Under the pieces are notes generated by a model. That model saw only the letters and a program-made list of their open reading frames with translations, was not told the DNA's origin and made no database searches. The position numbers were made by a program, and so were the translations under genes. This document shows, in pieces, positions 15,975-54,273 of a stretch of 64,000 nt of DNA. The stretch's first letter is position 1. Each line of letters begins with the position of its first letter. The stretch is from a virus (Duplodnaviria; Heunggongvirae; Uroviricota; Caudoviricetes): the IMG/VR virus record IMGVR_UViG_3300017917_001353, positions 38,545 through 102,544 of that record; one strand, given 5' to 3'.

Positions 15975-16732
15975 CATTTAAGAATCAGGTAGTTATAATT
16001 AAGTTTATGACTATCTATTCCCCACCTCCGTTTATTGAACGGTTCCAATATAAAAACTGCGTACAGGTAAATGACCCTGTAACTAGAAAACGTGTTTACC
16101 AAACTCCGGACGGGGAAACACTACCTAGTGTAACTACAATCCTAAGTTCAACTAAGGACATGACTGCCTTAAACGAATGGAGGAAGAGGATTGGTGAAGA
16201 CAAGGCCAACCAAATTACACGAGAAGCGGCAGGCGTTGGTACAGCCATGCACAGCAATCTGGAAAGATTTATTGCAGGCCTGCAACGTCAGCCTGGCAAT
16301 AATCCAGTTCATGTACAGGCCAACAAAATGGCTGACATTATTATTGAAAATGGCCTAAAGGATGTTAACGAAGTATGGGCCATGGAACAGAGCTTATACT
16401 TTCCCGGGCTATATTCGGGTACAACTGACCTAGTAGGTGTTTACAAAGGCAATCCTAGTGTAATGGATTATAAGCAGACTAACAAACCTAAAAAAGAAGA
16501 ATGGATCGATGACTACAAAGTTCAATTGGTAGCATACATCATGGCACATAATGAAGTGTATGGAACAACAATCAATGAAGGCCATGTATTCATGTGTAGT
16601 AGAGATTTACAATATCAACAATTCGATCTTTGGCCGGACGAGTTCGAGCATTGGCAGAACAAATGGTTGGATAAGGTTCAAGAATATTACACCACAGGTA
16701 TGCAAGGTCTTAAGCAAATCCTAACACAATGA
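15971..16732 (+). CDS. PD-(D/E)XK-type nuclease (YqaJ/Cas4-like fold)
   Basis: TDLVGVYKGNPSVMDYKQT gives a D..(D/E).K catalytic arrangement. 253 aa. Confidence 0.4.
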   Translation: MTFKNQVVIIKFMTIYSPPPFIERFQYKNCVQVNDPVTRKRVYQTPDGETLPSVTTILSSTKDMTALNEWRKRIGEDKANQITREAAGVGTAMHSNLERFIAGLQRQPGNNPVHVQANKMADIIIENGLKDVNEVWAMEQSLYFPGLYSGTTDLVGVYKGNPSVMDYKQTNKPKKEEWIDDYKVQLVAYIMAHNEVYGTTINEGHVFMCSRDLQYQQFDLWPDEFEHWQNKWLDKVQEYYTTGMQGLKQILTQ

Positions 16733-17028
16733 TCGGTATAGATATTACTCGAATCTCTCGATTTGAATCTATGTCTTACAGGTTACCTAGATTGAGCGAG
16801 AGATTTGAGACCGTATTGAGTACGCCCTTAGAAGCCGCAAAATGGTGGGCCTGTCATGAGGCAGTGATAAAATGTCTTGGTAGTCCACCTGACTGGAAAA
16901 CTAGCAAAATCGTCTTCAAACAAGGCACTTCTCCGTCATTTATTGGCGAAAAACATATAGCATTGAGCCTAAGTCACGAAGGCGATCTTGTAGTAGCGGT
17001 AGCAGTGCTCAATCCTTACCAAATGTAG
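16729..17028 (+). CDS. acpS: holo-[acyl-carrier-protein] synthase (4'-phosphopantetheinyl transferase, AcpS type)
   Basis: MIGIDITRISRF..., ...ACHEAVIKCLG..., ...LSLSHEGDLVVAVAVL match the AcpS pattern GiDiv.i.R ... KEA..KalG ... lSlSH....a.A.v. Ends in TAG, which is rare in this window. Confidence 0.6.
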   Translation: MIGIDITRISRFESMSYRLPRLSERFETVLSTPLEAAKWWACHEAVIKCLGSPPDWKTSKIVFKQGTSPSFIGEKHIALSLSHEGDLVVAVAVLNPYQM

Positions 17029-30231: not shown

Positions 30232-30409
30232 TTTAGAAGCCGAAGACGTCCGATATAATCTGCATGTAGGTGCAGAACCTATATCGGACTATAACATCAC
30301 ATTGATTTGGCCAGAATGGAAACCACCGCCAGATCGATTCCCTCAAGTTCCATTACAACCTCCAGAAATTGTAAAATCTAATCTAGCGAAATTAGGGATA
30401 TTCTTCTAA
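30212..30409 (+). CDS. hypothetical small protein
   Basis: 65 aa coupled ORF. Confidence 0.25.
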   Translation: MQNSLPDLEAEDVRYNLHVGAEPISDYNITLIWPEWKPPPDRFPQVPLQPPEIVKSNLAKLGIFF

Positions 30410-31374
30410 TGAAAAAATTCCTTCACCATGCGGGCATGACGCCCATGATGACCACCCCTACTCATATGTATAATGTGTACGATAGAACACAGTCAATGCT
30501 CTATCAGCCACAGATACATTGTATATCTCCTATAGGCAAAGTAGTAGACAAACCTAAAACAATAGAAGAACTATGCTACGAAAGCGCACAGAGGATTATT
30601 TCTAAAGCAGAGTACAATTTTATTTTTGTAACATGGAGCGGAGGTATTGACTCTACTCTTGTGCTATCCGAGTTTTTGAAATATGCACCACATGATCAAA
30701 TCGTCGTAATGATGGACAAGCATAGTATTCAAGAATATCCTAGTTATTATGAGAAGTTTATTAAGAACAAACTAAGAACTACTCATATGGACTTCTATAC
30801 TGATCGTCCGCTAGAAAAAGCAATACAAACAGGCATTGTAGTTACAGGACACTTACTAGATCCAGTGTTCGGATCTAACAACTACTCTGCTATGTCTGAA
30901 CAAAAACTAAGAGAGCCAGTAGAAAGTTTCTTAAAACCGTTAAACGGTTATTCGAGAGAACTTTACCAAAAATTAATAAATGCTTGCCCTAGACCTTTAG
31001 AAAATGTTAAAGATTTATTCTGGTGGTTAGATTATACGTTAAACTATCAGAGCGAAGAACTAATGTGGCTACTAGAAGTCAAAGATATGATTCTGGGCAA
31101 AAACCTTTTTCACTTCGGCATGGGCCCCGATTGGAATAACTATGCTGTAACAACTCCAATTGAAGGCAAGTGGGAAGGATACGATTTTAGAAAATTTAAA
31201 CAGCCTTTGAAAGATCAAATTTATAAATTTACTAAAGATGATTTTTATACAAAGGAAAAAATTAAAATGCCGTCCTGGAGACATTATAGAACAGACGAGC
31301 AGCGATACAGTAAAAAAGCAATCTGGATCGATACAGAATGGAGAAGAGGATGGCAGTGGCAAAATCAAATTTAG
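30409..31374 (+). CDS. PP-loop ATP pyrophosphatase superfamily protein (AsnB-C/PAPS-reductase/QueC-like adenylating enzyme)
   Basis: FIFVTWSGGIDSTLVLSEF carries the SGGxDS PP-loop. 321 aa. Ends with TAG. Confidence 0.55.
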   Translation: MKKFLHHAGMTPMMTTPTHMYNVYDRTQSMLYQPQIHCISPIGKVVDKPKTIEELCYESAQRIISKAEYNFIFVTWSGGIDSTLVLSEFLKYAPHDQIVVMMDKHSIQEYPSYYEKFIKNKLRTTHMDFYTDRPLEKAIQTGIVVTGHLLDPVFGSNNYSAMSEQKLREPVESFLKPLNGYSRELYQKLINACPRPLENVKDLFWWLDYTLNYQSEELMWLLEVKDMILGKNLFHFGMGPDWNNYAVTTPIEGKWEGYDFRKFKQPLKDQIYKFTKDDFYTKEKIKMPSWRHYRTDEQRYSKKAIWIDTEWRRGWQWQNQI

Positions 31375-34984: not shown

Positions 34985-34986
34985 CA

Positions 34987-36885: not shown

Positions 36886-37479
36886 ATGATAAATTATCAA
36901 GACTTCCTTAGTTGGGTAGATGTGGCAAAATTTGCCACAGCCTGTAACAACATCAGCAATGCACCTGGTACTCAAATTCTAAATGAGCACAGTAACCGTA
37001 TGCTCAAAGAAAAGTTTATCTTAGGAGCATTGGCAATCTGCAACCACAAGAAAAATATCACTTGGGTTGATACGATTGACTACGATTTAATTTTTACAGC
37101 GTGGAATGATGCTACTGTGGAAGTTAAGACTGGCGACGGTCCTATGTTTACCGAAAAGAAGGGCGACCTTAAAGAGCATGTGAGTGTTAAACTAAAAAAC
37201 ATTTACGAAAGTAAGGCTAACACACGCACTACATTGGACAAAACATTTGATCATTTGATGATTATCCAAAATAGCGGAACATTTGCTATCGGATTCGTTC
37301 CGTTTGATGTCGTGAGTCAGCATCTGGTGCAGTTAACTGATGGATGGAAAGCCAAGATTCCTGCCGATAAAGTTACTATTGTATATCAGCAGGATATGCG
37401 ACAACTACCTGTAGACTGGACTGTCGATTTGAACCCTAGAAATTGGGTACTTGACAAACTTACTGAAGCAGGGCTATAA
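36886..37479 (+). CDS. hypothetical protein
   Basis: 197 aa. Confidence 0.3.
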   Translation: MINYQDFLSWVDVAKFATACNNISNAPGTQILNEHSNRMLKEKFILGALAICNHKKNITWVDTIDYDLIFTAWNDATVEVKTGDGPMFTEKKGDLKEHVSVKLKNIYESKANTRTTLDKTFDHLMIIQNSGTFAIGFVPFDVVSQHLVQLTDGWKAKIPADKVTIVYQQDMRQLPVDWTVDLNPRNWVLDKLTEAGL

Positions 37480-37503
37480 TAAATATAGCAAAGGAATAAT
37501 ATT

Positions 37504-37572
37504 ATGGCATATCGAGCAAAACCAAGAAGCGTTAAAGCCGCAGTTCGTAGAGTACTACGTAGAAATAAGTAA
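37504..37572 (+). CDS. very small basic peptide (22 aa)
   Basis: RBS AAAGGA. Encodes MAYRAKPRSVKAAVRRVLRRNK. Confidence 0.2.
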   Translation: MAYRAKPRSVKAAVRRVLRRNK

Positions 37573-37627
37573 TGGACGACGATCTTAAAAGATTCGGAGT
37601 TGGATTTGTTACTGTTGTAATAATCAT

Positions 37628-37969
37628 GCTACTAGTCTTGTAAGTTATTGCTGTAAGAAGCAAAGAGAAAAGTGTTCTGGACGCGGGTTCGACTCCCGCC
37701 ATCTCCACCGAAGCACATTGCGGCACTAGGAGCGCATTTAAACTTAACCTAGTGTGGCTACTTAGGCAGTGTGTTTCGTTGGGGATGTACTGGTTTCGAC
37801 AGGGCAAAGAGTAACAGAGTGGACAGCACGGTAGGCGATGACCGTAAATCAAGCAAAACAAAATAGACGCAAACGACAACGTTTACGCATTAGCAGCCTA
37901 AACACTGCTTAGGGTAACTATACCTCGTAACAGAAAATAGTAATAGGCTCTTCGGAGCCTATTTTTTTG
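37628..37969 (+). ncRNA. ssrA: tmRNA (ssrA), circularly permuted two-piece type
   Basis: Acceptor-piece 3' end GGACGCGGGTTCGACTCCCGCCATCTCCACC (T-arm plus acceptor strand plus CC, 37679-37709) lies upstream of the coding-piece 5' end GGGGATGTACTGGTTTCGACAGG (37781). The GGGGATG/CATCTCC acceptor helix has the G3:U wobble (Ala identity). Tag ORF GCA AAC GAC AAC GTT TAC GCA TTA GCA GCC TAA (37869-37901) encodes ANDNVYALAA. Terminator hairpin aggctcttcggagcct+T7 at 37945-37969. No T-arm follows the tag, so it is not a one-piece gene. The 5' boundary of the acceptor piece is approximate. Confidence 0.6.
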
Positions 37970-38017
37970 ATAAATAGTTAAACAAACGGTATCTGTTTTT
38001 ACAATAAGGAGAAAGCA

Positions 38018-38317
38018 ATGTTTGTCTATAACTCTGTTCAAGAAAAAACTTCAAATTCCACTCCCTGGTTTAAGGACGTTAATCCTGCCGCTTACGAATC
38101 TATTTTAGAAACAGTACGTAATGCACCTGGCTTTGTTAGCGGTAATTGGGAAGTTGACCCATCTAACCCTAACAGGTTCTTAATCACACACTCGTGGAAC
38201 GACAAGGCATCTTGGAAAAATATGTCAAATTCTTTAAAGTCTTTATCTGCAATGCAGATGGGCGAGCTTTATAGAAAGAACAACGAAATCACCACTACAG
38301 TAAATCTAAGTGAGTAA
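38018..38317 (+). CDS. hypothetical small protein
   Basis: 99 aa. RBS AAGGAG. Confidence 0.3.
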   Translation: MFVYNSVQEKTSNSTPWFKDVNPAAYESILETVRNAPGFVSGNWEVDPSNPNRFLITHSWNDKASWKNMSNSLKSLSAMQMGELYRKNNEITTTVNLSE

Positions 38318-38327
38318 ATACTGAATT

Positions 38328-38876
38328 ATGAAATTCAGTATCCCTATTAGTATTCCCGGCTGGGAAAATATCGCAGAAAAATATTCATCTTGGGTCAAGT
38401 TTGGAGAAGAAGGAATGCACTCCAAACTTGTTCCTACAGAAGATTGGGAATTTATACTTTCAATTGTAAACCCGGCCATAAAGAAAATTTCTAGGGTAGA
38501 TCACAAAATCAACGGCTGCATAAACTTCTTCGTCCCTCCAGGAAAAACTAGGGGAATACACGTTGATTGGAGTAGCCCTGATTGGCCCACTAAAGGCAAT
38601 TGGGCGCTGAACATTCCTATTGCAAATTACGAAAACAGTGCAATGGAATGGTATGCAGGAGAATACACTCGAGAAATGTATCATCGCCCTGGGGGATATA
38701 TTTCAGATAAACTGACTTGGAAAACTAAACCAGTTCTTATCGAATCCTGCGTCATCAATCAGCCAACTTTAGTATATGTAGATATACCTCACGATGTTAG
38801 AAACAACGGCAATTCAACAAGAGTACTGATGAGCCTGCGTTTAAGTCCTAATATCCTAACATACATTCCTAAATAA
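38328..38876 (+). CDS. cupin/AspH-like oxygenase-like protein
   Basis: TRGIHVDWSSPDW (HxD) ... VDIPHDVRNNGNSTRVLMSLRL. Confidence 0.4.
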   Translation: MKFSIPISIPGWENIAEKYSSWVKFGEEGMHSKLVPTEDWEFILSIVNPAIKKISRVDHKINGCINFFVPPGKTRGIHVDWSSPDWPTKGNWALNIPIANYENSAMEWYAGEYTREMYHRPGGYISDKLTWKTKPVLIESCVINQPTLVYVDIPHDVRNNGNSTRVLMSLRLSPNILTYIPK

Positions 38877-38966
38877 TTTCTCCAAAACTGTAAACTAATT
38901 TCTTAGTTCGTGCGTTATATATGTACGTAGATAAAGTTTTCTACGCTAACCAAAAAGGAACTTAAA

Positions 38967-39161
38967 ATGAAATTAGTTGCAACCTTGATCGCCGGCTTAT
39001 TTGCCGTTACCGCTTTCGCCGCAGAACCTGCTAAGAAAGAAGCCCCTAAGGCCGAAGCCAAGCCCGCCGCAGCCGCTCCTGCACCCGCAGCCAGCGCACC
39101 TGCTGCTAAGCCTGCTGAAAAGAAAGCAGAGCCTGCCAAAAGCGAACCTGCTAAGAAGTAA
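38967..39161 (+). CDS. secreted Ala/Pro/Lys-rich low-complexity protein
   Basis: Signal peptide MKLVATLIAGLFAVTAFA, then AEPAKKEAPKAEAKPAAAAPAPAA... repeats. Confidence 0.4.
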   Translation: MKLVATLIAGLFAVTAFAAEPAKKEAPKAEAKPAAAAPAPAASAPAAKPAEKKAEPAKSEPAKK

Positions 39162-40105: not shown

Positions 40106-40819
40106 ATGAGTCATATTATTCGATTTAACCGTAATAATTTTCTCGACTATCTTACTGACAACTGGAAACCCATTAGTGACGAATTTTCTTCTTGGTTCCT
40201 TGAGCATGAAAAAACTCACGGTCCTAAGATCAAGGCTAATGTAGCAACTGCCCAGACACAGAGTTTACCGTTGTATACGGGAATGTTTAAATCAGTCGTT
40301 ATAAAAATTGAAGATACATTATTGCTAGAATCTGAAGCACGATCCCTCCACTGGGAAAATTTTGGAAAGACTGGAGCCGTTAAGACTCTGTATAGAGAAC
40401 AATGGTTAGAGCAGATGCCAACTCTACATCAGTGGGTAGTACAACATTATGATATAATAGGATCTGTACAATTTAATACATCAATGCCCGGAAGCCTGCT
40501 GCGCCATCATTTCGGAAACGATCCAAAGTACCTTAGACTGCATCTAACGTTAAAAGAAGCGCCCGGCTGTATGTTTAATATCGAAAACGAAATCTATGAA
40601 TGGAAGGACGGCGACCTTATAGGATTTGACGATGCAATAGTTTATCATGGTACTAAACACACGGGTACTGAAGAAAGAGTAATCCTTGTAATAGATGTAC
40701 TAAAATCTGCTGTTAAAGAACATGCAGTAGATTGGTCGATACGGGAAGGGCTAACTAAAAGAGACAGGTCTCCTGTAGCAATATATAATTGGTATCCGCA
40801 GAAACAAAGACTAACATGA
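40106..40819 (+). CDS. aspartyl/asparaginyl beta-hydroxylase (AspH/LpxO/OlsC)-family 2OG-Fe(II) oxygenase
   Basis: PGSLLRHHFGNDPKYLRLHLTLKEAPGCMFNIENEIYEWKDGDLIGFDDAIVYHGTKHTGTEERVILVIDV matches the Asp_Arg_Hydrox signature. Confidence 0.55.
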   Translation: MSHIIRFNRNNFLDYLTDNWKPISDEFSSWFLEHEKTHGPKIKANVATAQTQSLPLYTGMFKSVVIKIEDTLLLESEARSLHWENFGKTGAVKTLYREQWLEQMPTLHQWVVQHYDIIGSVQFNTSMPGSLLRHHFGNDPKYLRLHLTLKEAPGCMFNIENEIYEWKDGDLIGFDDAIVYHGTKHTGTEERVILVIDVLKSAVKEHAVDWSIREGLTKRDRSPVAIYNWYPQKQRLT

Positions 40820-41532
40820 AGAAAGAAAGCCAATATATCTATTTTAATCGAGGTAATCCTACGTTAGATTACCTAACTAATAACTGGGAAAAAATTAGAG
40901 ATGAATTTTTAGCGTGGTATCCTAATCATATGGGTCCCGGAGGTCTACAAGACCCCGAAGGCATAGGTAAAAAAGCAAACCATTACACGATAAATCAACC
41001 TGGAGCAAATTTAGTATATCACGGAAATTTTAAGTGTATGCCCACGTTCATTCGAGATACTGTACTTGACCCGCAAGAAGCAGATGATCTCTTTTGGCCT
41101 GACTTTCAAAAAGGCGGCCCTACGTATATACTCAGGAGAGAACGAATCAAACAGATGCCCGTGATGGGACAATGGATTATGGAGCATATAGATATTTTGG
41201 GATCAGTACAGTACAACATCAGTATGCCCGGAAGCCAATTAAATCATCATTGGGGATTAGACTACAACTATCTCAGACTACATTTAGTACTAGATTCTGC
41301 TCGGGGATGTTTATTTGATATTGAGGGCGAAAAGCACGAATGGGTTAACGGAGAACTTTTCGGGTTTGATGATAGTATGGTTTTGCATGGTACTAAACAC
41401 ACCGGAACTAAACCTAGATCGATAGTTTTGATCGATATCCTAAAAACTGCTGTTCGTCCGTATGCTAAATCATGGCCAATTAAACCTTGGGTAGATCGTA
41501 AGGATAGACCAAAAATCGAAGTCAAATGGTAA
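40789..41532 (+). CDS. AspH/LpxO/OlsC-family hydroxylase (tandem paralog)
   Basis: PGSQLNHHWGLDYNYLRLHLVLDSARGCLFDIEGEKHEWVNGELFGFDDSMVLHGTKHTGTKPRSIVLIDI. Confidence 0.55.
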   Translation: MVSAETKTNMKKESQYIYFNRGNPTLDYLTNNWEKIRDEFLAWYPNHMGPGGLQDPEGIGKKANHYTINQPGANLVYHGNFKCMPTFIRDTVLDPQEADDLFWPDFQKGGPTYILRRERIKQMPVMGQWIMEHIDILGSVQYNISMPGSQLNHHWGLDYNYLRLHLVLDSARGCLFDIEGEKHEWVNGELFGFDDSMVLHGTKHTGTKPRSIVLIDILKTAVRPYAKSWPIKPWVDRKDRPKIEVKW

Positions 41533-44283: not shown

Positions 44284-44677
44284 AATAACTCTTATAACAC
44301 CGCCGGATATCTTTGAAAACGCAAACCCTAGCATCTTGTTCTGTCATCTTAGTGATGAAGAGCAAGATGCCGTAAGTAAGTGGTTATCAAAGGCCGATAT
44401 TTCAAACAACATCAATCTCTATGTATATACTGGCGAACCAGCACCGGTTTGGTTTTTGTATGCACTCAACCGATGCGAGTATAAGTATATTAACATTAAC
44501 AGTGTAAACTTACTCACACAGGCTCTTAGTGGTTATGTTCTTAGTAGAAATAATGTTTACTACAGAACAGACGATACAAACTTAGCCGCAATATACAGTC
44601 ATATAAATTCTAATCGAGTAAACACTGTTGAAGAGTTTTTAGAGAGTATTTTAGGTGCCAAAACAAGTGAATCATAA
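44273..44677 (+). CDS. hypothetical protein (upstream partner of clpX)
   Basis: 134 aa. Overlaps the clpX start. Confidence 0.3.
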   Translation: MKSKITLITPPDIFENANPSILFCHLSDEEQDAVSKWLSKADISNNINLYVYTGEPAPVWFLYALNRCEYKYININSVNLLTQALSGYVLSRNNVYYRTDDTNLAAIYSHINSNRVNTVEEFLESILGAKTSES

Positions 44678-45884
44678 TTGCGATTTTTGCGGCAAAAGCA
44701 AAGAAGACGTAGAAAAACTAATAGTCGGCGAACATGCCGCAATTTGTAATGATTGTATAGATTTATGTGTTAGCATTTTAGATGACGAGAAAGTAAAAAA
44801 TTTACCCTCTGATAAAAAGACACTGAATCCTAGTCTAATCAAAGACTACCTTGACGAGTATATTACAGGCCAGGAAGATGCAAAGATAAGCCTTAGTGTT
44901 GCAGTTAGCCAGCACTTTAAGCGTATCAACAATCCCCACAAAGATATTAGTCTAGAAAAGACCAACGTACTATTGTTAGGTCCTACTGGCTGCGGCAAAA
45001 CTGCTCTGGCTAGAAAAATTGCAGAGTATCTAGATCTGCCGTTTGCTATCTGCGATGCTACTAGCATCACTGAAGCAGGCTATGTCGGCGACGATGTTGA
45101 AAGCATTCTGCTACGATTAATTAATGAAGCAGATGGGGACATGGAAAAGGCCAGCCGGGGCATTGTCTACATCGACGAAATTGACAAGATTGCCCGCAAA
45201 GGCGAAAACGTCAGTTTAACTAGAGATGTCAGTGGCGAAGGTGTTCAACAGGCCTTACTCAAAATGGTAGAAGGTAGCATTATGCGTGTTCCATATACCG
45301 GAAAAAGAAAGCACCCCGGATCGGACATGCAGGAAATCGACACCAGCAAGATTCTATTCATTTGCGGTGGTGCGTTTGTAGGACTAGACAAGATTGTACA
45401 GCGTCGAGTAGAAAACAGAGGAATCGGCTTCAATTCTAAACTACCTGATCCTACAAAGAACTCTGAATTTTATCAACAGGTAACACCTAAAGATATCATT
45501 CAGTTTGGATTTATTCCAGAGTTCATTGGACGATTTGGTATTATTACCAGTGTCGAAGAACTTACAGAAGAACAACTAGTAAAGATCCTAGTTGAAAACA
45601 AAAACAGTCTAGTTAGGCAATACAAGTATATGTTTGAACTAGACGGCATTGATCTACATTTTGAAGATAGTGCGTTAAGAGAAGTTGCCCGCAGAGCAAA
45701 AGAATTGAAAACAAATGCTCGTGGTTTAAAAAATATTCTCGAAAAGACACTGCTACCTTATCAATTTGATGCAGTTAATTTATTAGAGCGCGGTTTAACG
45801 AAAATTATTATAAGTAAAGATACCGTAGCCGGAAATCCGGCTGTATTGATATTTGATAAAAAAGTAAAAAATGAGCAAAAATAA
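44655..45884 (+). CDS. clpX: ATP-dependent Clp protease ATP-binding subunit ClpX
   Basis: N-terminal C4 zinc domain (CDFCGK...ICNDCIDLC), Walker A GPTGCGKT, GYVG pore loop, IGF ClpP-docking loop (NRGIGFNS), and sensor/arginine motifs. 409 aa. Confidence 0.9.
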   Translation: MPKQVNHNCDFCGKSKEDVEKLIVGEHAAICNDCIDLCVSILDDEKVKNLPSDKKTLNPSLIKDYLDEYITGQEDAKISLSVAVSQHFKRINNPHKDISLEKTNVLLLGPTGCGKTALARKIAEYLDLPFAICDATSITEAGYVGDDVESILLRLINEADGDMEKASRGIVYIDEIDKIARKGENVSLTRDVSGEGVQQALLKMVEGSIMRVPYTGKRKHPGSDMQEIDTSKILFICGGAFVGLDKIVQRRVENRGIGFNSKLPDPTKNSEFYQQVTPKDIIQFGFIPEFIGRFGIITSVEELTEEQLVKILVENKNSLVRQYKYMFELDGIDLHFEDSALREVARRAKELKTNARGLKNILEKTLLPYQFDAVNLLERGLTKIIISKDTVAGNPAVLIFDKKVKNEQK

Positions 45885-46110
45885 AGAAAGGGGTAGGGGC
45901 ATTAAAGTTATCGTCGGCGAGAATATGCCAATTAACGTAGCCCTGCGTAAGTTCAAACAAAAAGTTGACGATTCGGGCAAACTTGAAGATGTCAAAAAAC
46001 GTATGTTCTACGAAAAGCCAACAACTGAGCGTAAGAGAAAAAAGGGTGCGGCCCGTGCTCGTTGGCTAAAACGAGTAGAAGAACAACAACTACCTAAAAA
46101 ACTATTTTAA
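45871..46110 (+). CDS. rpsU: 30S ribosomal protein bS21
   Basis: IKVIVGENMPINVALRKFKQKV...KKRMFYEKPTTERKRKKGAARARWLKR matches bS21. Confidence 0.8.
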   Translation: MSKNKERGRGIKVIVGENMPINVALRKFKQKVDDSGKLEDVKKRMFYEKPTTERKRKKGAARARWLKRVEEQQLPKKLF

Positions 46111-46718
46111 TTCACACCTTGGGATTTTAAAAATCCCACCAGCATATACCTAGGTTCAAGAGCCCACGGAGTTACAGGAGTAACAAAGTGGGGTACCTGA
46201 CCATCTCGGTGATTCATTATCACTAATTGGTTAAATTGTGGTATAGTAGGGTCGACTTTTCCATCTTCCCCGATACTCATTAAAATGCCGCCCCAATCCC
46301 ATTTCCAGTTTCGTGTAAGATACCATATAAATCCCACATCTGAAATGTATGCATCTCGGTGTACTCTAAAATGGCCACCTTCTATCATTTTATAACAGCG
46401 TAGATCAGCATCAGCAACTTGTTTACCAGTTGTTTCTTCTACTAGAGGTTTGATATACGAGTAATAGCACTCTCTAATAACTGCGTTGCTTTCTAGATAG
46501 TTAGATCTGTGAAATTCCGAACGATAGACTTCATCCTGGTCTGGAACAAAGGGAATATCGTCGGTAAATTCTCTACCGTAGTATCCTCTGCGTTCTTGGG
46601 TAATACGATCATAGTCTGCATTTTTAAATTCATTTCGGGCAGACATTGCTATGTCTACCGGAACTGCATCTTGAATGACTCTTAATGGTTGGAGCATTGT
46701 GATCCTTTTATCTACCAA
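46107..46718 (-). CDS. 2OG-Fe(II) oxygenase (PhyH/prolyl-hydroxylase-like)
   Basis: MIEGGHFRVHRDAY (HxD) ... QVPHFVTPV (distal His). 203 aa. Confidence 0.45.
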   Translation of the reverse strand: MVDKRITMLQPLRVIQDAVPVDIAMSARNEFKNADYDRITQERRGYYGREFTDDIPFVPDQDEVYRSEFHRSNYLESNAVIRECYYSYIKPLVEETTGKQVADADLRCYKMIEGGHFRVHRDAYISDVGFIWYLTRNWKWDWGGILMSIGEDGKVDPTIPQFNQLVIMNHRDGQVPHFVTPVTPWALEPRYMLVGFLKSQGVN

Positions 46719-47813: not shown

Positions 47814-48058
47814 TGCCTAACTACGCAGAATACTTTGAGAAGCACAGACCAAAGCCGGTATGGCATATAGGAGACCGTGTATCTGGCAAGTGGAACAAGA
47901 TTCCATTCATTGGTAGTGTAGGCAATGATAATATGGTCAACGAAACGGAAGGCCCTCGAGTAAGCGTACATCTCGACCTACCTATCAAATATAAAGACAA
48001 AGTCTATACCGTGGTCTTTGTCAAACAGAAAGACATTAAACGGTTAGTTGATTATTGA
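47813..48058 (+). CDS. hypothetical protein
   Basis: 81 aa. Confidence 0.3.
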   Translation: MPNYAEYFEKHRPKPVWHIGDRVSGKWNKIPFIGSVGNDNMVNETEGPRVSVHLDLPIKYKDKVYTVVFVKQKDIKRLVDY

Positions 48059-48196
48059 ATTAAACAATAATCCTCATAGGAATAATTATTGTAAAAACCT
48101 ATTAAAACGCTTGGTCCATAGCGTAAATATATGTACAATAACTATATGCAGAAATAGTTCTGCAGAAAATTTTCATTTTAACACACAGGAGAAATT

Positions 48197-48730
48197 ATGA
48201 AAACAGTTGGTGATAAGTTAGAAGCGTTTGCAGTAGTTGGTGTAAACCCAGGTAGTGATCAATTCTTTGACATTACAGAAAAGAGTTTCGAAGGCAAGTG
48301 GAAGGTAATCGTTTACTATCCAAAGGACTTCACATTCGTTTGTCCTACAGAAATTGTAGCCTACGACAAACTAGCAGGCGACTTCAAAGATCGCGATGCA
48401 GTGTTGTTAACTGGTAGCACAGACAATGAGTTCTGCAAACTTGCATGGCAGAAAGCACATCCTGATCTTGCTAAAATCACGCACGTTCAGTTCGCAGATA
48501 CACAGCGTGGTGAACTAAGCCTGATCAATCAACTAGGCGTGTTCTATGCTCCAGCAGGTGCCGCACTTCGCGCAACTTTCATTGTTGACCCTAACAACGA
48601 AATTCAGCACGTTACAGTCAACAACTTGAACGTTGGTCGTAGCCCAGAGGAAACACTTCGTGTTCTTGACGCTCTACAGACTGGCGAACTATGTGCATGT
48701 AACCGTGCAGTCGGTGGCGAGACTCTGTAA
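48197..48730 (+). CDS. peroxiredoxin (AhpC/TSA family)
   Basis: FTFVCPTEI peroxidatic Cys motif. 177 aa. RBS AGGAG. Confidence 0.8.
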   Translation: MKTVGDKLEAFAVVGVNPGSDQFFDITEKSFEGKWKVIVYYPKDFTFVCPTEIVAYDKLAGDFKDRDAVLLTGSTDNEFCKLAWQKAHPDLAKITHVQFADTQRGELSLINQLGVFYAPAGAALRATFIVDPNNEIQHVTVNNLNVGRSPEETLRVLDALQTGELCACNRAVGGETL

Positions 48731-49065
48731 TGAGATATCACGCACACATCTACTGGCAGAATGAAGACCAGAGGCGTGAAGCATTGAGCCTACGAGAGCC
48801 CCTTCGAGAGATGGGCTCTAAAGTAGGTTCAATACATGAAGACGCAATAGGTCCTCATCCTCATGCTATGTATCAAGTCAACTACAATAGCACTATTGCT
48901 AGAGAAGTTGAGGACTTGTTATACAAGGCAAAATTGCATATCTTGTTGCATGAGGACACCGGAGATGATGTGCGAGATCATACCAAGGGTGCTCGTTGGA
49001 TTGGTAGACCATTAGACTTAAACATCAAATGGCTTGAAGAATACGCAAGGAAGAAACATGCTTGA
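48730..49065 (+). CDS. small DOPA-dioxygenase-like (PF08883-like) protein
   Basis: YHAHIYW ... GPHP ... LHEDTGDDVRDH...ARWIG. Recalled family resemblance only. Confidence 0.3.
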   Translation: MRYHAHIYWQNEDQRREALSLREPLREMGSKVGSIHEDAIGPHPHAMYQVNYNSTIAREVEDLLYKAKLHILLHEDTGDDVRDHTKGARWIGRPLDLNIKWLEEYARKKHA

Positions 49066-49456
49066 TTGCCTTATTCTCGGCGACAGTATTGCAGTAGGCA
49101 CACATCAGCAAAGACCCGAATGCGTGGCTTATGCAAAAGGTGGTTGGAATACTTGGCAATGGAACCGAGATTATCTTAAAAATGATCTAACTGCTAAAAC
49201 AGTCATTATCAGTCTCGGTAGCAACGATCATCCTGGCGTTAGAACTAAGGCAGAGTTACAGCGTATAAGAGAAAAGGTAGGAACTGGTTCAAGAGTGTTC
49301 TGGATTCTACCTGCAATTAAACCTGATATTCAGGAGATTGTAAAACAAATGGCTAAAGACTACGGGGATACCGTTCTTCCAATTACAAAATTGCAAAAGG
49401 ACGGCGTCCATCCTAGTTGGGCCGGGTATAAAATATTAGCGGAGGGTACGAAATGA
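49058..49456 (+). CDS. SGNH/GDSL hydrolase
   Basis: LILGDSIAVG (GDS(I) block I) near the N-terminus. ...DGVHPS... C-terminal catalytic His block. Confidence 0.45.
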   Translation: MLDCLILGDSIAVGTHQQRPECVAYAKGGWNTWQWNRDYLKNDLTAKTVIISLGSNDHPGVRTKAELQRIREKVGTGSRVFWILPAIKPDIQEIVKQMAKDYGDTVLPITKLQKDGVHPSWAGYKILAEGTK

Positions 49457-49526
49457 ACTTTAGAGAACAGTTTGACTATTTAAAGAAGTGGCACTGCCCT
49501 TCTTGCAACACACACAAGGAAACAAA

Positions 49527-50069
49527 ATGACACAATGGGTAGATTTGGTTAAAGAGGCATTACCTGAATATGCCAAGGATACAAAGTTGAATCTAGATGC
49601 AGTGATCAAGCGTTCGACATTAGATCCGGTAGAAGCAGAAGCCTGCGCCTTGGCTGCTCTTGTAGCAACAGGCAATGGTAAGTTGCTTGCATGGGTCTTA
49701 GCAAACACAGACTTAAACATTAAGACAGACACAGTAGATAACATCAAGGAACGAGATGCTGCCATGACTGCCGCAAGCATTATGGCACAGAACAATGTAT
49801 GGTATCCGTTCGTTGAAATGGCAGAGGACGAACAACTCAAAGGTCTTCCTGCACAACTACGCATGAATGCTATCGCCAGCCACGGCGGAACAACTAAGGC
49901 TCGTTTCGAAGCCTATAGTTTGGCTGCTAGTATTGTTGGCAAGTGCCATTTCTGTGTAAAAGCACACTATGACACACTAAAGAAAGAAGGCTACACCGTA
50001 GAACAACTTCGTGATATCGGTCGTATTGCCGCAGTTATGAACAGTTTGGCTAAGGTTCTAAACAGTTAA
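49527..50069 (+). CDS. AhpD-like alkylhydroperoxidase (carboxymuconolactone decarboxylase family)
   Basis: GKCHFCVKAH gives the CxxCxxxH AhpD core motif. Same operon as the peroxiredoxin. Confidence 0.5.
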   Translation: MTQWVDLVKEALPEYAKDTKLNLDAVIKRSTLDPVEAEACALAALVATGNGKLLAWVLANTDLNIKTDTVDNIKERDAAMTAASIMAQNNVWYPFVEMAEDEQLKGLPAQLRMNAIASHGGTTKARFEAYSLAASIVGKCHFCVKAHYDTLKKEGYTVEQLRDIGRIAAVMNSLAKVLNS

Positions 50070-50631
50070 TAACTTCATCCCAGGACCAAGTATCTTTAAT
50101 GGTCCAACTGACGCTAGTCCTATTCTTGTTGTTATCCTTATTATTCACTCTATGTGGAGTCTGGGTATTGACAAGGATAGGACAGTCTTTTAATACATAC
50201 TGATCAACTAACTTTATAGGCGCACCAGGAACTACTCCTGTAATATTTGCGTCTCTTAAAAATACCAGATGCTTGGGATCTACTTCAAAAAACTCTGTCG
50301 GGCACAATTCGTCACAGCCGCTAATTGGGATGTTAATGCTCAATAGTCTCTTACCATTAATTCTTTCTCGTTCCGGCGGGCCGTTATCTAAATGAATCGG
50401 CGTCGATATCCCCGGTGGCATATCAAATACGAATATGTGCTTTGACAGGAACGGATACTTTGCCTGTAGTCGAACCATGAAGTCAAACTTCTCAGAGTCA
50501 TCAGTTTGAAGGACAGAAGAAATGAATAACTTCAATCTGATCGGCAATATTTTTTCCCAAAAAATTTCTTGTATGTCGTTGGCTAATTCAAATGCCTTAG
50601 CACTGGTTAAATGCTGATATCGTTTGTCCAT
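50050..50631 (-). CDS. cupin-type oxygenase-like protein (distant paralog of family A)
   Basis: PIHLDNGPPE...LSINIPISGCDELCPTEFFEV parallels HPHVDRSW...IYFPISGC..SEYYDLP. Confidence 0.4.
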   Translation of the reverse strand: MDKRYQHLTSAKAFELANDIQEIFWEKILPIRLKLFISSVLQTDDSEKFDFMVRLQAKYPFLSKHIFVFDMPPGISTPIHLDNGPPERERINGKRLLSINIPISGCDELCPTEFFEVDPKHLVFLRDANITGVVPGAPIKLVDQYVLKDCPILVNTQTPHRVNNKDNNKNRTSVSWTIKDTWSWDEVINCLEP

Positions 50632-50686
50632 AAAAATATTTATAGACCATTGACGTCACTTAAAATTTTCTATACAATAATTTCAT

Positions 50687-50759
50687 GCGCTAGTCCGCGT
50701 GGAGCGGCAGGAGCCTCTAAAACTCCCAACTGTGGGTTCGATTCCCATCTAGCGCACCA
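50687..50759 (+). tRNA. tRNA with anticodon CUA (amber-suppressor type), non-canonical D-arm
   Basis: Acceptor gcgctag/ctagcgc (7 bp), discriminator A, encoded CCA. T-arm gtggg-TTCGATT-cccat. Anticodon stem ggagc/actcc with a C.A closing pair and loop C-U-CUA-A-A. Only 1 nt between the acceptor and D stems. D-stem ccgc/gcgg with a 5-nt D-loop. 73 nt total. Confidence 0.6.
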
Positions 50760-50768
50760 AGGATTAAT

Positions 50769-50990
50769 ATGCCAAAGAAAAAACAAGCAAAAAAGTTTAA
50801 CTATGCAGTGGGCTTTTATTGGCCCGACGGTGAAGGTTCCGTAGGCTGTTATGCCTACGGCAGTGAAACATTCTTTGGCACAATGGAAGATGCTCGTAAC
50901 TTTCGCACTTACTGTCAAAATCAATCAGACAACAAGGGCAAAGATCGCCGAGAGTACAAAATTTTTCAACTGGTAGAGATTCCGGAATGA
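50769..50990 (+). CDS. hypothetical protein
   Basis: 73 aa ORF just downstream of the tRNA. Confidence 0.3.
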   Translation: MPKKKQAKKFNYAVGFYWPDGEGSVGCYAYGSETFFGTMEDARNFRTYCQNQSDNKGKDRREYKIFQLVEIPE

Positions 50991-51402
50991 TCCCTTATAC
51001 TGATCATGAATGTCGCCTTAAGTTAGATGAACTCTACGAAGGGCATAGTGTTGTTCTTCCTAAGAATATGGAACATGCTCGTTTCATGCTTCGTGTGGCA
51101 CAAATGTATATTGACCAACATCATAACGATCTTATTGATCTAATCAAAAATTCGGACAAAAAATGACTTTAGAAGAAGCAGTTAAGATTAGAGAAAGTTT
51201 AGAAGAACTAATCGCCGATCCAGAAATTGATTTTGGTCCTGCATATGAACATGTAAAACTTCGACAAGCAGAAGCACTACGCATAATCAAAAAAGAAATT
51301 AAGCGTCTAAAAGCAGAATAAATAGAATTGCGGGGATGGTCCCCGCAACCAACCGTCTTTAATTAACATGGCTTTAGACGGTAGCCAGTAAAAGGAAAGA
51401 AA

Positions 51403-52302
51403 ATGATGTATAATCAGAAATTGGTCGCCTCCATCAAAACAAAAGGCAAAATTCTCCGCGAATTTAAAGACACAGTCTATATTCCATTTGGCAGCGAATA
51501 TAGCATTCTACTAAAAAACCTCAATACAGTTCGAGCCGTTGTGAATGTTTTCATCGACGGTGAGAATGCCGTTCCCGGCGGACTAGTCATAGACCCAGGT
51601 CGGAGTGTCGACCTTGAGCGTTGGATTAAGAACGGCAACCTCACAGAAGGCAATCGTTTCAAGTTTATTGAACGCACTGCTAAAATTGAAGAAGGCCCTC
51701 GCGGCATCAAAGAAGAAGATGGATTGATCCGTGTAGAGTATCAGTTTGAACTTCCACGTCCTGTAATCAATATTAACCAAATTATTGGTAACAGTTTTCC
51801 GCAATATCCATCCGGTGTTCGTTCTAGCGAGTACCGGGGCATTGTTGACAAGTATAGCACCACAGGAGGTAACAGTTGGATCCAGGCCAGTGGTGCAACC
51901 TTCAGCCAAGTAAATGTTAACGGTGCTCTACGTGGTGTAGATTACAGTGCAAATGGTGCCGCAATGCAGGCTTCGGCCGCGGCTGCTATTGATAAAGTAG
52001 TACCACAATCTGCCGAATTGCATGATGGCATGGCTACAATGGACTGGTGTCAAAATGAAACAGGCATTACTGTTCCGGGTAGCAAGAGCACACAAAGTTT
52101 TCAGACTACTACGGTAGGTGCATTAGATCCTACAGTTCATAACATTGTGCTACGCATTGTAGGCGACCTTGGACATAACAAGCCTGTAGACAAGCCTGTT
52201 ACAGTTAAACATAAGCCTAAATGTGTAACCTGTGGCAAACAAAACAAAGCCCACGCCAAGTTCTGTACTGAGTGCGGCACGGCATTGGAAATATTTGCCT
52301 AA
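51403..52302 (+). CDS. hypothetical protein with C-terminal zinc ribbon
   Basis: 299 aa. C-terminal CVTCGK...CTECG (2x CxxC). RBS AAAGGAAAG. Confidence 0.35.
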   Translation: MMYNQKLVASIKTKGKILREFKDTVYIPFGSEYSILLKNLNTVRAVVNVFIDGENAVPGGLVIDPGRSVDLERWIKNGNLTEGNRFKFIERTAKIEEGPRGIKEEDGLIRVEYQFELPRPVININQIIGNSFPQYPSGVRSSEYRGIVDKYSTTGGNSWIQASGATFSQVNVNGALRGVDYSANGAAMQASAAAAIDKVVPQSAELHDGMATMDWCQNETGITVPGSKSTQSFQTTTVGALDPTVHNIVLRIVGDLGHNKPVDKPVTVKHKPKCVTCGKQNKAHAKFCTECGTALEIFA

Positions 52303-52304
52303 AA

Positions 52305-52323
52305 GTGTAATCATTTTGTAATC
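52305..52323 (+). promoter_or_regulatory. candidate Pho box (PhoB site) upstream of pstS
   Basis: gTGTAATCatttTGTAATC: two 7-bp direct repeats with 11-bp periodicity resembling the proteobacterial CTGTCAT-N4-CTGTCAT. TAAATA -10-like about 10 nt downstream. Confidence 0.35.
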
Positions 52324-52383
52324 TCTGCGTAGTTAAATAATTGTGTGCAGATGCACATTCACTTAACACACAAGGAGATTACA

Positions 52384-53367
52384 GTGAAAAAACTATTCGT
52401 GACACTACTGGCGGCAATAGCCGTTACAGCACAAGCACAAACCATTACCGGAGCGGGAGCAACATTCCCGGCTCCGGTTTATAGTAAGTGGGCCTCTGAT
52501 TATAACAAAGAAACAAAAGTACAAATTAATTATGGAAGTCTAGGATCTTCCGGCGGCATTAAACAGATGGAAGGCAAGACTGTAAACTTTGCCGCCACTG
52601 ACGATCCAATGAGCCAAGAGGACCTAACCAAGCGTGGATGGCATCAATTTCCTGCTGTCATCGGTGGAGTTGTTCTAGCAGTAAATTTTAAAAATTTTCA
52701 ACCAGGTGAAATTGTACTAGACGGCAAAACTGTAGCAGATATATTTGAAGGCAAGATTACAAACTGGAATGATCCTGCCATTAAGAAACTAAATCCTAAA
52801 CTTACATTTCCTGACCTAACAATTACTGCTATTGTTCGCAGTGACGGATCAGGTACTACCGCAGTCTTTACTAACTATCTAAGCCAAGTTAGTGAAAGTT
52901 TTAAAAAGAATGTAGGCGAAGGTAAAGCCATTGCTTGGAAGAATAAAAATGCTGCCGCCGGTAAAGGCAATGCAGGTGTTGCTGCCAATGTACAAAATAT
53001 TGCAGGTAGTATAGGCTACGTTGAATATGCGTTTGCCAAGCAAGGTAAGATGACCCATGTTGCCATGTTGAATAAAGGTAAGGTTGTGCAACCAGACGAT
53101 TCGACATTTAAACAGGCCGCCGATAGTGCCAATTGGTCTGTGCCCGGCATGGCTGTAAACTTAAACAATAGAGACGGATGGCCGATTACTGCCGCTACCT
53201 TTGTATTAGTTTACAAAGAAGGGCACGATAAGACAAAAGATGTGTTGAAATTCTTTGACTGGGCATTTACTAAAGGAGATCAGGCCGCATTAGATCTCGA
53301 TTATGTACCTTTACCGGATAAAGTAAAGGTACAGGTTAGGGCCGACTGGGCTAAGAATGTAAAATAA
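52384..53367 (+). CDS. pstS: phosphate ABC transporter periplasmic phosphate-binding protein PstS
   Basis: GTG start after RBS AAGGAG. Signal peptide MKKLFVTLLAAIAVTAQA. TGAGATFP...Y.KW, SDGSGTT and other PstS blocks. Confidence 0.85.
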   Translation: MKKLFVTLLAAIAVTAQAQTITGAGATFPAPVYSKWASDYNKETKVQINYGSLGSSGGIKQMEGKTVNFAATDDPMSQEDLTKRGWHQFPAVIGGVVLAVNFKNFQPGEIVLDGKTVADIFEGKITNWNDPAIKKLNPKLTFPDLTITAIVRSDGSGTTAVFTNYLSQVSESFKKNVGEGKAIAWKNKNAAAGKGNAGVAANVQNIAGSIGYVEYAFAKQGKMTHVAMLNKGKVVQPDDSTFKQAADSANWSVPGMAVNLNNRDGWPITAATFVLVYKEGHDKTKDVLKFFDWAFTKGDQAALDLDYVPLPDKVKVQVRADWAKNVK

Positions 53368-53371
53368 AAAT

Positions 53372-53397
53372 AAAGGGCTTTACTAGCCCTTTATTCT
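53372..53397. terminator. hairpin terminator
   Basis: aagggctttactagccctt hairpin between convergent genes. Confidence 0.5.
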
Positions 53398-53565
53398 TTA
53401 CCCCAATTAACTTTCAACCATAGTCGTTCATGTATGTAATGCACAATAGTCATCCATACATTAATTAAAATTGCTCCGCTTAGTCCTGTGAAATATGCAG
53501 TAACTAAAGTTGCTGTGATTCTCCAACTTGCGGCTCTTACTAATGTTCTCTTGTGTGTTTCCATA
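53395..53565 (-). CDS. small membrane protein
   Basis: 57 aa METHKRTLVRAASWRITATLVTAYFTGLSGAILINVWMTIVHYIHERLWLKVNWGKE. Not in the supplied track because it is under 60 aa. Confidence 0.3.
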
Positions 53566-53579
53566 TTTTACTCCAAAAT

Positions 53580-53610
53580 AAAAGCCCCTTTCGGGGCTTT
53601 GTTAATTTTT
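53580..53610. terminator. bidirectional hairpin terminator
   Basis: aaagcccctttcggggcttt followed by T-rich sequence. Confidence 0.55.
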
Positions 53611-54273
53611 CTTTCTAATTTCTGTTCGGTAATACTGTTTAGCAGTAAGAAGAACAGCACCTATTAATGGCAATACATTTTCTATAAAATCGTGTAATGG
53701 ATCAATGTGATTGTCAATGAATGGTTCGTGTACTATCATCTTTCCTGCTACTAGATATAGAACAAATGCACCTAAGTAAATTGTTCTGGGATATTTATCA
53801 AGTATGCGAGAAACTAGTGTGCTACCGAATAAGATGATTGGTACACTAACTAGAAGTCCAATAATGATTAGAATCCAGTTACCGTTTGCGGCACCAGCAA
53901 TAGCCAATGCATTATCAAGGCCCATAACTGCATCTGCCATTACGATTGTGCCCATTGCGCCCCAGAACGTTGTAGCAGCCTTAACATCATGTTCTTTATT
54001 GCCCTGTGTTAGTTTCCAAGCAATATAGATCAATGCAAGTCCGCCTACTAGACGCAGTCCGGGAATCATTAGCAGATAAGTTAGTGCAGCCACACAGGCA
54101 AACCGTACACCTACAGCACCGAAGGTACCCCAGAGTATAGCACGTCGACGCAGATGATCCGGTAGTTGTTTACTGGCCATAGCAATAACCAGTGCGTTTT
54201 CTCCACCTAGCACAACATCAATTAAGATAATGGCCAGCAGAGCCCATAAGAATTGTAAGGATAAAATTTCCAT
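53602..54273 (-). CDS. terC: TerC/Alx-family integral membrane protein
   Basis: Start moved to the internal Met (MEILSLQFLWALLAIILIDVVLGGENALVIAMA) typical of the TerC family. The track ORF extension to 54336 is riboswitch leader. Multiple TM helices with paired DN motifs. Confidence 0.7.
   Translation of the reverse strand: MEILSLQFLWALLAIILIDVVLGGENALVIAMASKQLPDHLRRRAILWGTFGAVGVRFACVAALTYLLMIPGLRLVGGLALIYIAWKLTQGNKEHDVKAATTFWGAMGTIVMADAVMGLDNALAIAGAANGNWILIIIGLLVSVPIILFGSTLVSRILDKYPRTIYLGAFVLYLVAGKMIVHEPFIDNHIDPLHDFIENVLPLIGAVLLTAKQYYRTEIRKKN

Follow-up and report, generated by a model that had tools for sequence, protein, structure and literature searches.

A candidate natural amber suppressor tRNA from a conserved lineage of large standard-code phages

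Here we analyze a tRNA gene with a CUA anticodon (tRNA-CUA) in a Caudoviricetes virus, IMG/VR record IMGVR_UViG_3300017917_001353, of which we studied one stretch of 64,000 nucleotides (nt), positions 38,545 to 102,544 of the record (hereafter the window). Our results place this gene in a tRNA family that is widespread in large standard-code freshwater and Xanthomonas phages, a kind of gene already known. We lean, with modest confidence, toward the reading that it is a functional UAG-decoding tRNA, that is, a natural amber suppressor of a conserved lineage acting by the mechanism set out below. Judged from its sequence features, suppression of UAG in infected cells is likely; that host-directed read-through is its purpose we offer as a tentative suggestion, on the doubtful side. 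Natural amber suppressors in phages that are not recoded have been without explanation since the description of phage XacN1 in 2018.

The tRNA-CUA gene and its family

ARAGORN calls a single tRNA in the 64-kb window, on the plus strand at 50687-50759 (73 nt, anticodon cta at tRNA position 31), and the Rfam family RF00005 matches 50687-50756 with 34.3 bits (E=0.0021), above the gathering threshold of 29. The two identifications are independent of each other, and the 73-nt CUA tRNA with encoded CCA described in the original prediction stands. The acceptor stem (GCGCUAG/CUAGCGC) is perfect at 7/7 pairs and is followed by the discriminator A73 and the CCA end, the variable loop (CAACU) has 5 nt, and the T-arm (GUGGG-UUCGAUU-CCCAU, reading GGGUUCGAUUCCC) is canonical. 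The anticodon stem consists of four pairs plus a C31.A39 mismatch, the sole nonstandard pair of the RF00005 alignment (arm GGAGC-CUCUAAA-ACUCC) and the same C.A closing pair that had been reported from the sequence. Its 7-nt loop, C-U-CUA-A-A, has the U33 and the purine A37 looked for in an amber suppressor. The sequence CUCUAAA is also the loop of Escherichia coli su7 and of PylT and suits suppression, and A36-A37-A38 is a signal for i6A37 modification. For the D-arm, the minimum free energy (MFE) fold of ViennaRNA gives U8 / CCGC-GUGGA-GCGG / CA, namely a 1-nt connector, a stem of 4 base pairs (bp), a 5-nt loop and 2 nt, whereas ARAGORN draws a different, weaker arm. We favor the MFE-type arm because the closest relatives (L008, L200, and L009; L numbers denote individual loci) keep the 1-nt connector and the 4-bp stem by way of compensatory changes (CCUG/CAGG, CCCG/CGGG, and GCCG/CGGC, respectively); the one-nucleotide spacing and 5-nt loop proposed earlier are thus reproduced. 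With 16 nt, the D-region is the shortest among 55 family members (range 16-21, mode 18), which by this alignment makes the window gene the most D-arm-reduced member of the family seen. Judging by the family members that have ordinary D-arms, the compact arm is a late, lineage-specific reduction, from 18 through 17 to 16 nt.

The family set holds 55 distinct sequences from ~85 viral contigs, including three sequences from cultured phages. The exact window anticodon arm, a query that fixes both the anticodon and the C.A pair, occurs in 45 IMG/VR contigs, and ARAGORN called a tRNA-CUA in 40 of them. A search independent of the anticodon (T-arm plus 3' acceptor) returned 50 viral contigs, 46 with class-I CUA tRNAs, one with a tRNA-Lys(UUU) and three with class-II tRNA-Leu. 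Given these 46, the CUA anticodon is a property of the lineage and not a query artifact, and the 31-39 mismatch is present in this set as well. Throughout the 55 sequences the anticodon loop is CUCUAAA in 46 and UUCUAAA in eight; the 31-39 pair is C.A in 45, as in the window, A.C in seven, C.C and U.C once each, and a paired C-G once. A73 is found in 53/55 and G1-C72/C2-G71/G3-C70 in 49/55, and the window gene has all of these. Among 47 distinct, de-duplicated cores, U33-C34-U35-A36-A37 is invariant and position 31-39 is unpaired in 46. Covariation was also tested in the three long stems (those of the acceptor, anticodon and T arms), aligned without gaps over 47 distinct rows and compared with 500 shuffles: stem cells are paired at 93%, compensatory double changes occur in 14 of the 17 pairs, no shuffle reaches any observed measure (0/500), and pairing collapses to 34-46% when the alignment registers are slid. 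This pattern of change indicates that the lineage is under selection as a tRNA, and we hold it very probable that the window gene itself is a genuine, selected tRNA with a CUA anticodon. Acceptor pairs 4-7 covary freely whereas pairs 1-3 and A73 are fixed, the pattern expected of synthetase identity elements at the acceptor end.

Which amino acid this end would specify is less clear. Similarity to ~190 phage tRNAs and to the 26 canonical tRNAs of the cultured jumbo phage XacN1 peaks at 0.7-0.8 and is spread over Lys, Phe, Trp, Ile, and Glu, which agrees with the earlier caution that identity is not readable from sequence; the top Lys match (L159) is biased, since L159 was selected by the same search pattern. 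Phage tRNA-Trp(CCA) genes (L046, L058, L071, L087, L092, L097, L099, L135, and others) have the arm GGAGC-CUCCAAA-ACUCC, including C31.A39, so that the anticodon arm and its mismatch are common to UGG and UAG decoders in phages; these genes have G73 and acceptor stems unlike that of the window tRNA. Outside the CUA genes, the window arm with its mismatch is met in IMG/VR as a tRNA arm solely with the anticodon CCA (19 matches, mostly tRNA-Trp). By E. coli identity rules, U35 together with A73 favors LysRS, U35 in a CUA anticodon favors GlnRS, and A20 with A73 allows ArgRS. G1C2G3 resembles tRNA-Gly, but U73 is needed there, and A73 and G1-C72 do not fit bacterial TrpRS, though the anticodon arm is that of phage tRNA-Trp. 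A scan of bacterial genomes for the acceptor GCGCTAG...CTAGCGCA yielded mostly chance matches among those listed, the real tRNAs being tRNA-Arg (ACG, CCG, GCG) and one tRNA-Gly, and no bacterial tRNA-CUA was among the matches listed. Pfam found no synthetase or release factor in 71 of the 81 window open reading frames (ORFs) of at least 90 amino acids (aa), the remainder being seven ORFs between 55980 and 63773 and three likely spurious ones. Lys, Arg, and Gln are the leading candidates for the charging identity, with Gly an outside one.

Stop codons and genetic code

The window (42% guanine plus cytosine, GC) is written in the standard code. Its plus strand is densely coding: of the 64 kb, 55.7 kb fall within stop-to-stop ORFs of 100 aa or more. 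Code 11 gives a coding density of 0.89, and treating TAG as sense leaves this value at 0.89. The 81 ORFs, taken as a greedy, nonoverlapping set, end in TAA 51 times, in TGA 27 times, and in TAG three times. Since TAG and TGA trinucleotides are about equally common in the window (1051 vs. 1036), TAG avoidance is specific to stop positions. The original prediction of a standard-code phage avoiding TAG stops is borne out, and with it the rarity of such stops; its count had missed a third TAG-terminated ORF, on the minus strand (50050-50631), and its phrase "in a genome" holds for the window and extrapolates from 64 kb. The same bias extends to other carriers of the tRNA. Among de-duplicated ORF ends in loci of 33-47% GC, TAG makes up 44 of 752 stops (5.9%) in carrier loci and 69 of 432 (16.0%) in GC-matched control viral loci (Fisher p=3e-8, across phylogenetically related loci). 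TAG stops followed by C are enriched as well (11/44 in carriers vs. 4/69 in controls, or 25% vs. 6%, p=0.005), and all three TAG stops of the window are followed by C.

There is no convincing recoding in any family carrier locus. The shift in density under TAG-as-sense is no larger in family loci than in controls, and in the seven loci with the largest gain no in-frame TAG occurs in ORFs of at least 280 aa, except in L040, which lies outside the family. TAG-recoded relatives, sought because they might reveal the inserted amino acid, did not emerge: the top-gain loci add only short, probably spurious ORFs. The late-type genes of the window, encoding a 1055-aa Mtd_N tail fiber, a lectin-fold protein and a pectate-lyase-like protein, are also free of in-frame TAG. 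The proposal that the tRNA might be a relic of, or a tool against, TAG-recoded competitors finds no support in these loci; being part of a conserved and covarying lineage, the tRNA is not a relic.

Two-piece tmRNA, promoter, and gene neighborhood

A permuted, two-piece transfer-messenger RNA (tmRNA) lies on the same strand of the window (table 1). Among 201 sequences searched with ARAGORN, the window and 200 viral loci, 14 contain a permuted tmRNA, and 14/14 are tRNA-CUA carriers; with one more added by Rfam in L181, the total becomes 15 of 80 carriers versus 0 of 121 controls. The tmRNA is on the tRNA strand in every case, with gaps of 28 nt (L029) and 56 nt (L181) and up to 12.7 kb (the window); where only 28-56 nt separate the two RNAs, they would be co-transcribed. 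In the reverse test, 119 viral loci were chosen by a tmRNA motif: among the 92 with a called tmRNA, seven carry tRNA-CUA, and any tRNA is nearby in 19, CUA being the second commonest anticodon there. A functional link between tRNA-CUA and tmRNA is plausible. A precedent is the work of Ueda et al. (2002; cited in PMC3985003), in which the SsrA system reportedly deals with read-through that suppressor tRNAs cause. No SmpB domain was found in the scanned window ORFs. In the literature searched, we found no mention of the tmRNA linkage, the conserved A/C at 31-39, or the near-leaderless promoter described next.

In the predicted window promoter, 8 nt lie between the end of the -10 box and the tRNA 5' terminus. 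A -10 box ending 8-9 nt upstream recurs, by a strict regular expression, in 27 of 57 distinct family loci, and several further loci have, by eye, only a -10-like box. Going by these consensus matches, the predicted start of transcription falls on the mature tRNA 5' end or no more than a couple of nt from it. The 73-aa ORF that follows is probably co-transcribed with tRNA-CUA; it has no Pfam match, and its homologue in L444 (62% identity) lies ~900 nt downstream of tRNA-CUA. The order tRNA, AAGGA, and ATG recurs in L001, L027, L041, L164, and L191.

Table 1. Coordinates of the tRNA-CUA Gene, the tmRNA, and Associated Features in the Window
Feature	Position	Strand	Remarks
TAG-terminated gene, weak ACPS-family match	16729..17028	+	read-through +33 aa, then another TAG
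TAG-terminated gene, no Pfam match	30409..31374	+	stop context TAG-CAG-TAG; read-through +1 aa, second TAG
Permuted two-piece tmRNA, tag ANDNVYALAA	37598..37992	+	ARAGORN 37618-37992; RF01850 150.9 bits, 37598-37965; RF04321 144.5 bits, 37649-37901
AhpC	48197-48730	+	Pfam
Two unrelated genes between AhpC and AhpD-like	48730-49065, 49034-49456	+	
AhpD/CMD-like gene	49488-50069	+	Pfam
TAG-terminated gene diverging from the tRNA promoter region	50050..50631	-	read-through +4 aa, then TAA
Predicted sigma70-like promoter, TTGACG-17 nt-TACAAT	50650..50678	+	best site of promoter scan, 10/12 matches
tRNA-CUA	50687..50759	+	ARAGORN, RF00005, MFE fold, family parsing, covariation in three long stems
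Acceptor stem	50687-50693 / 50749-50755	+	
D-region	50694-50709	+	
Anticodon arm	50710-50726	+	anticodon 50717-50719
Variable loop	50727-50731	+	
T-arm	50732-50748	+	
Discriminator A73	50756	+	
CCA	50757-50759	+	
73-aa ORF	50769..50990	+	starts 9 nt after CCA (ATG +10); AGGA ribosome-binding site directly after CCA
299-aa protein, C-terminal zinc ribbon	51403..52302	+	Pfam; adjoins tRNA-CUA downstream in 28 family loci

Further out, tblastn detects AhpC in 34 loci and CMD in 32 loci of the tRNA-selected and tmRNA-selected sets and in none of the controls. We treat AhpC and the AhpD-like gene as synteny markers of tRNA-CUA and tmRNA, conserved neighbors in related phages for which no functional partnership is implied. 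The 299-aa protein has homologues in the jumbo phages XacN1 (ORF366, 39.5% identity), Xoo-sp13, CM1, and RAS14, at 33-40% identity. At the nucleotide level, positions 48000-54000 had no megablast match among INPHARED phages, and no record matched in an exact-protein look-up of the window AhpC. The minus-strand TAG-terminated gene has no homologue in any fetched locus; by eye, it has HxD / ISGC / HxV motifs common with the hydroxylase-like ORFs of the window. The latter are many paralogous small proteins resembling Asp/Asn-hydroxylases or 2OG-Fe(II)-oxygenases (21680-22378, 32516-35547, 38328-38876, 40106-41532, 46107-46718 on the minus strand, and 50050-50631 on the minus strand), some assigned by Pfam hits and others, including 50050-50631, by eye. 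The window also encodes a ClpX homologue (44655-45884) and a set of auxiliary metabolic genes: SOD, AhpC, AhpD-like, fatty-acid desaturase, DOPA dioxygenase, PstS-like, TerC, and NadR-like/NUDIX.

Other family loci offer additional observations. In L014, L017, L020, L029, L181, and L200, and also in L018 (~5537, minus strand), a conserved element of ~115 nt (GAGCAGCG...CAGUAUGAGUCGC...GGGCAAGCAAnAGUA...), in the first six directly after the CCA of tRNA-CUA, forms hairpins with compensatory changes. It matches no Rfam family, ribozymes of the HDV (hepatitis delta virus) type included, is absent from the window, and may act in 3' processing or represent a new structured RNA. The Rfam "freshwater-2" motif (72-76 bits) lies on the strand opposite to tRNA-CUA, close upstream of it in L004 (6730-6813, minus strand) and L033 (8604-8684, minus strand) and ~1.2 kb upstream in L200 (6498-6588, minus strand), which indicates a freshwater origin of the phage clade. 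L040, a 395-kb viral contig, has a tRNA with a 4-base anticodon (aaac; 4601-4675, ARAGORN), a CUA tRNA whose CCA is not encoded, and a single ORF, of 584 aa, that contains four TAGs in frame. This contig may come from a recoded phage that has no relation to the family.

Proposed function, alternatives, and known systems

The reading that best accommodates these sequence features is that of an early-expressed, general UAG suppressor, which the phage tolerates after largely clearing TAG from the ends of its genes. It is in essence the idea, also listed in the original prediction, that the tRNA modulates termination in the infected cell. Host RNA polymerase would recognize the sigma70-type promoter 8 nt upstream and transcribe the tRNA early, as the first part of a tRNA-mRNA transcript; after processing, a host aminoacyl-tRNA synthetase would charge it, and the C32-U33-CUA-A37-A38 loop would compete with release factor 1 at UAG. 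Read-through would fall mostly on the mRNAs of the host or of co-infecting elements, a target suggested by the phage genes themselves, since TAG rarely closes them and, where it does, read-through adds only a short extension. The two-piece tmRNA could then rescue ribosomes reaching mRNA 3' ends and tag their products for degradation. In its strongest form, tRNA-CUA and tmRNA would be a two-part module rewiring termination, in which the suppressor reads through host or competitor UAGs and the tmRNA rescues the ribosomes and marks the proteins; we regard this as a speculative and distinctly unlikely extension. Were it true, the host would be shut off, and ribosomes and amino acids would be recycled.

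Several observations weigh against a general suppressor. The window copy has the weakest tRNA score in the family (34.3 bits vs. 41-67), its D-arm is without the usual A14 and position-9 geometry, so that function could be impaired, and the unexplained 31-39 mismatch could reduce decoding efficiency. TAG depletion is partial (~6% left, with three such stops here) and could stem from host or lineage codon habits; the TAG stops of carriers are not backed by nearer second stops (median 11 codons vs. 11.5 in controls); and, the loci being phylogenetically related, the p-values given for depletion of TAG and for linkage to tmRNA make independence look greater than it is. Because AhpC/AhpD-like genes adjoin both RNAs, one inherited island of tmRNA, tRNA-CUA, and AhpC/AhpD is the simplest reading of the linkage. 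ClpX is found in no related locus and is not part of the conserved tRNA/tmRNA neighborhood. Moreover, our view covers 64 kb of a genome that probably exceeds 200 kb.

Among the alternatives, a pre-recoding stage or mutational insurance deserves most attention, unlikely as we consider it. According to the model of Borges et al., TAG is first depleted in standard-code relatives and a suppressor is then acquired, a route to recoding (10.1101/2021.08.26.457843); the tRNA would be kept since lethal TAG mutations are tolerated, maybe as a step to code 15, and would have no host-directed function. The window does fit the profile of the standard-code relatives of recoded phages, depleted in TAG and equipped with a suppressor (10.1101/2021.08.26.457843), and it is depleted yet not recoded. 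However, 55 sequences from freshwater and Xanthomonas phages, rich in compensatory changes, make this an old and diverse lineage, and with no fetched carrier locus recoded, the "intermediate" would be very long-lived. The model also invokes very low GC, which contrasts with the 42% found here, and leaves the dedicated, predictedly strong promoter and the tmRNA linkage unexplained.

A second alternative, that the genome is partly TAG-recoded outside the window (e.g., in capsid or lysis genes) and that the tRNA decodes its code-15 late genes, seems improbable. Recoded phages do keep their early and replication regions in standard code and encode the suppressor there (10.1101/2021.08.26.457843), and the window spans only 64 kb; yet its late-type genes and the long ORFs of 80 carrier loci lack in-frame TAG, no density is gained with TAG as sense, and in the fully sequenced XacN1 reading through its 18 amber stops uncovered no hidden coding sequence (PMC5852040). 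Quite improbable, too, is that the window copy is decaying or does not decode, serving instead as an RNase P/Z processing signal for the downstream mRNA or as a recombination or integration target. Its Rfam score is the lowest and its D-region the shortest of the family, and with an ORF starting 9 nt after CCA, tRNA processing would create an mRNA 5' end; on the other hand, the acceptor, anticodon, and T arms are called perfect, promoter and CCA are intact, comparison with L008, L200, and L009 shows the D-stem preserved through compensatory change, and a processing signal would not need an invariant CUA across 55 sequences.

Programmed read-through of TAG-ended phage genes into C-terminally extended isoforms, which the original prediction had put forward for the acpS and ATPase genes (stops ending at 17028 and 31374), is very improbable. 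All three TAG genes of the window have the TAG-C context enriched in carriers, but translation past the stops adds 33 and 1 aa to those two genes and 4 aa to the third; these extensions hold no domain, do not enter the frame of the next gene, and look nonfunctional, no conserved extension was found in XacN1, and the TAG-terminated genes are not conserved partners of tRNA-CUA across loci. Finally, a pyrrolysine tRNA can practically be dismissed: "Pyl" is merely the default name ARAGORN gives to CUA, family relatives have ordinary D-arms, and in anticodon stem length, variable loop, G18G19, T-loop, and discriminator the window tRNA departs from PylT.

How, then, does the gene compare with known UAG decoders? 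PylT has in common with it the CUA anticodon, the CUCUAAA loop, the 1-nt connector between acceptor and D stems and the 5-nt D-loop, hence the original description of its D-arm as reminiscent of PylT. This likeness is superficial, resting on the short D-arm and the loop, whereas the five other defining features fail: PylT has a 6-bp anticodon stem and a 3-nt variable loop, against 4 bp plus a mismatch and 5 nt in the window, and it has G73 and lacks G18G19 and T54-psi55-C56, against A73, the GG of the D-loop GUGGA, and the T-loop GGUUCGA. Neither pylS, pylBCD, an aminoacyl-tRNA synthetase, nor any Pyl-type protein was found among the scanned window ORFs, and their only radical-SAM protein carries a SPASM domain. 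Annotation pipelines currently mislabel such genes as "tRNA-Pyl". The E. coli suppressor su7 (supU), derived from tRNA-Trp, has an identical anticodon loop, C-U-C-U-A-A-A, but it arose in the laboratory by point mutation of a host tRNA, has G73, and pairs 31 with 39, unlike the natural, conserved gene of the window with its A73 and GCG acceptor end.

Code-15 phages (crAss-like, Lak, and others; Borges et al., 10.1101/2021.08.26.457843; PMC9523058) likewise combine a phage CUA tRNA with a standard-code host. They differ in having in-frame TAG in structural and lysis genes, whereas family carriers are without detectable recoding, and in being low-GC gut phages, whereas the family phages have 35-45% GC and are apparently aquatic or plant-associated. 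Apart from the XacN1 report, the literature on phage suppressor tRNAs deals with recoded phages. As for the tmRNA, such genes occur in 2.3% of phage genomes, with two-piece forms mostly in aquatic phages (PMC9004378). Among these, the OM43 myophage Melnitz resembles ours in encoding a permuted tmRNA, proposed to act early, possibly by tagging host proteins (PMC9004378); the words "suppressor" and "amber" are absent from that paper, the linkage to tRNA-CUA coming from the present analysis.

The closest known system is provided by cultured relatives. The family consensus matches an annotated "tRNA-Sup" in XacN1 (AP018399) and an unannotated site in Xoo-sp13 (MN047793). ARAGORN confirms tRNA-CUA genes in both, two in tandem in XacN1 (36047-36122 and 36130-36205, both annotated "tRNA-Sup") and one in Xoo-sp13 (~36791-36866); each has the loop CUCUAAA and mismatched C31.A39. 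The XacN1 pair is identical from D-arm to T-arm, with unrelated acceptor stems and with discriminators A73 versus G73 (L323 5895-6053), differences that suggest two charging identities for one decoder. For XacN1, the two suppressors were reported along with 592 genes, 18 of which end in amber, and in-silico read-through of these stops gave no new similarity, no conserved extension and no target (Yoshikawa et al. 2018, PMC5852040). The suppressor work in that paper is in silico, and tmRNA is not mentioned (PMC5852040). Directly downstream of the two tRNA-Sup genes, the GenBank record has no annotated features from 36561 to 39052. This gap contains a permuted tmRNA (L323 7025-7469, ~37.2-37.6 kb; tag ANANTFDYALAA), ~1 kb downstream of the suppressors, and after it a GOLLD RNA (RF02032, 227 bits; L323 8418-8831, ~38.57-38.98 kb).

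Like the window, XacN1 thus has a class-I tRNA with CUCUAAA, C31.A39, encoded CCA, and, in its first copy, A73; it uses the standard code with few amber stops (3.0%), carries a permuted tmRNA close by on the tRNA strand, and belongs to a related clade, as judged from ORF366 and its window counterpart. Unlike the window, its acceptor stems are GGCCCGU and GCUUUCG (vs. GCGCUAG), its D-region is a normal one of 19 nt (vs. 16 nt), and its tandem A73/G73 copies sit inside a 29-tRNA array in the terminal repeat, whereas the suppressor of the window is the only tRNA in 64 kb. A compact UAG-reading tRNA with efficient, leaderless expression could serve genetic-code expansion. Overall, XacN1 is no oddity: it appears as one member of a conserved lineage spread across many large aquatic and plant-pathogen phages, with a fixed acceptor end, an A/C opposition at 31-39, a promoter ~8 nt away, TAG-depleted genomes, and linkage to a two-piece tmRNA as its hallmarks. 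What had been an annotation curiosity can thus be put to the test as a hypothesis, namely that the phage imposes read-through and couples it to ribosome rescue, for which XacN1 and Xanthomonas citri offer a cultured system.

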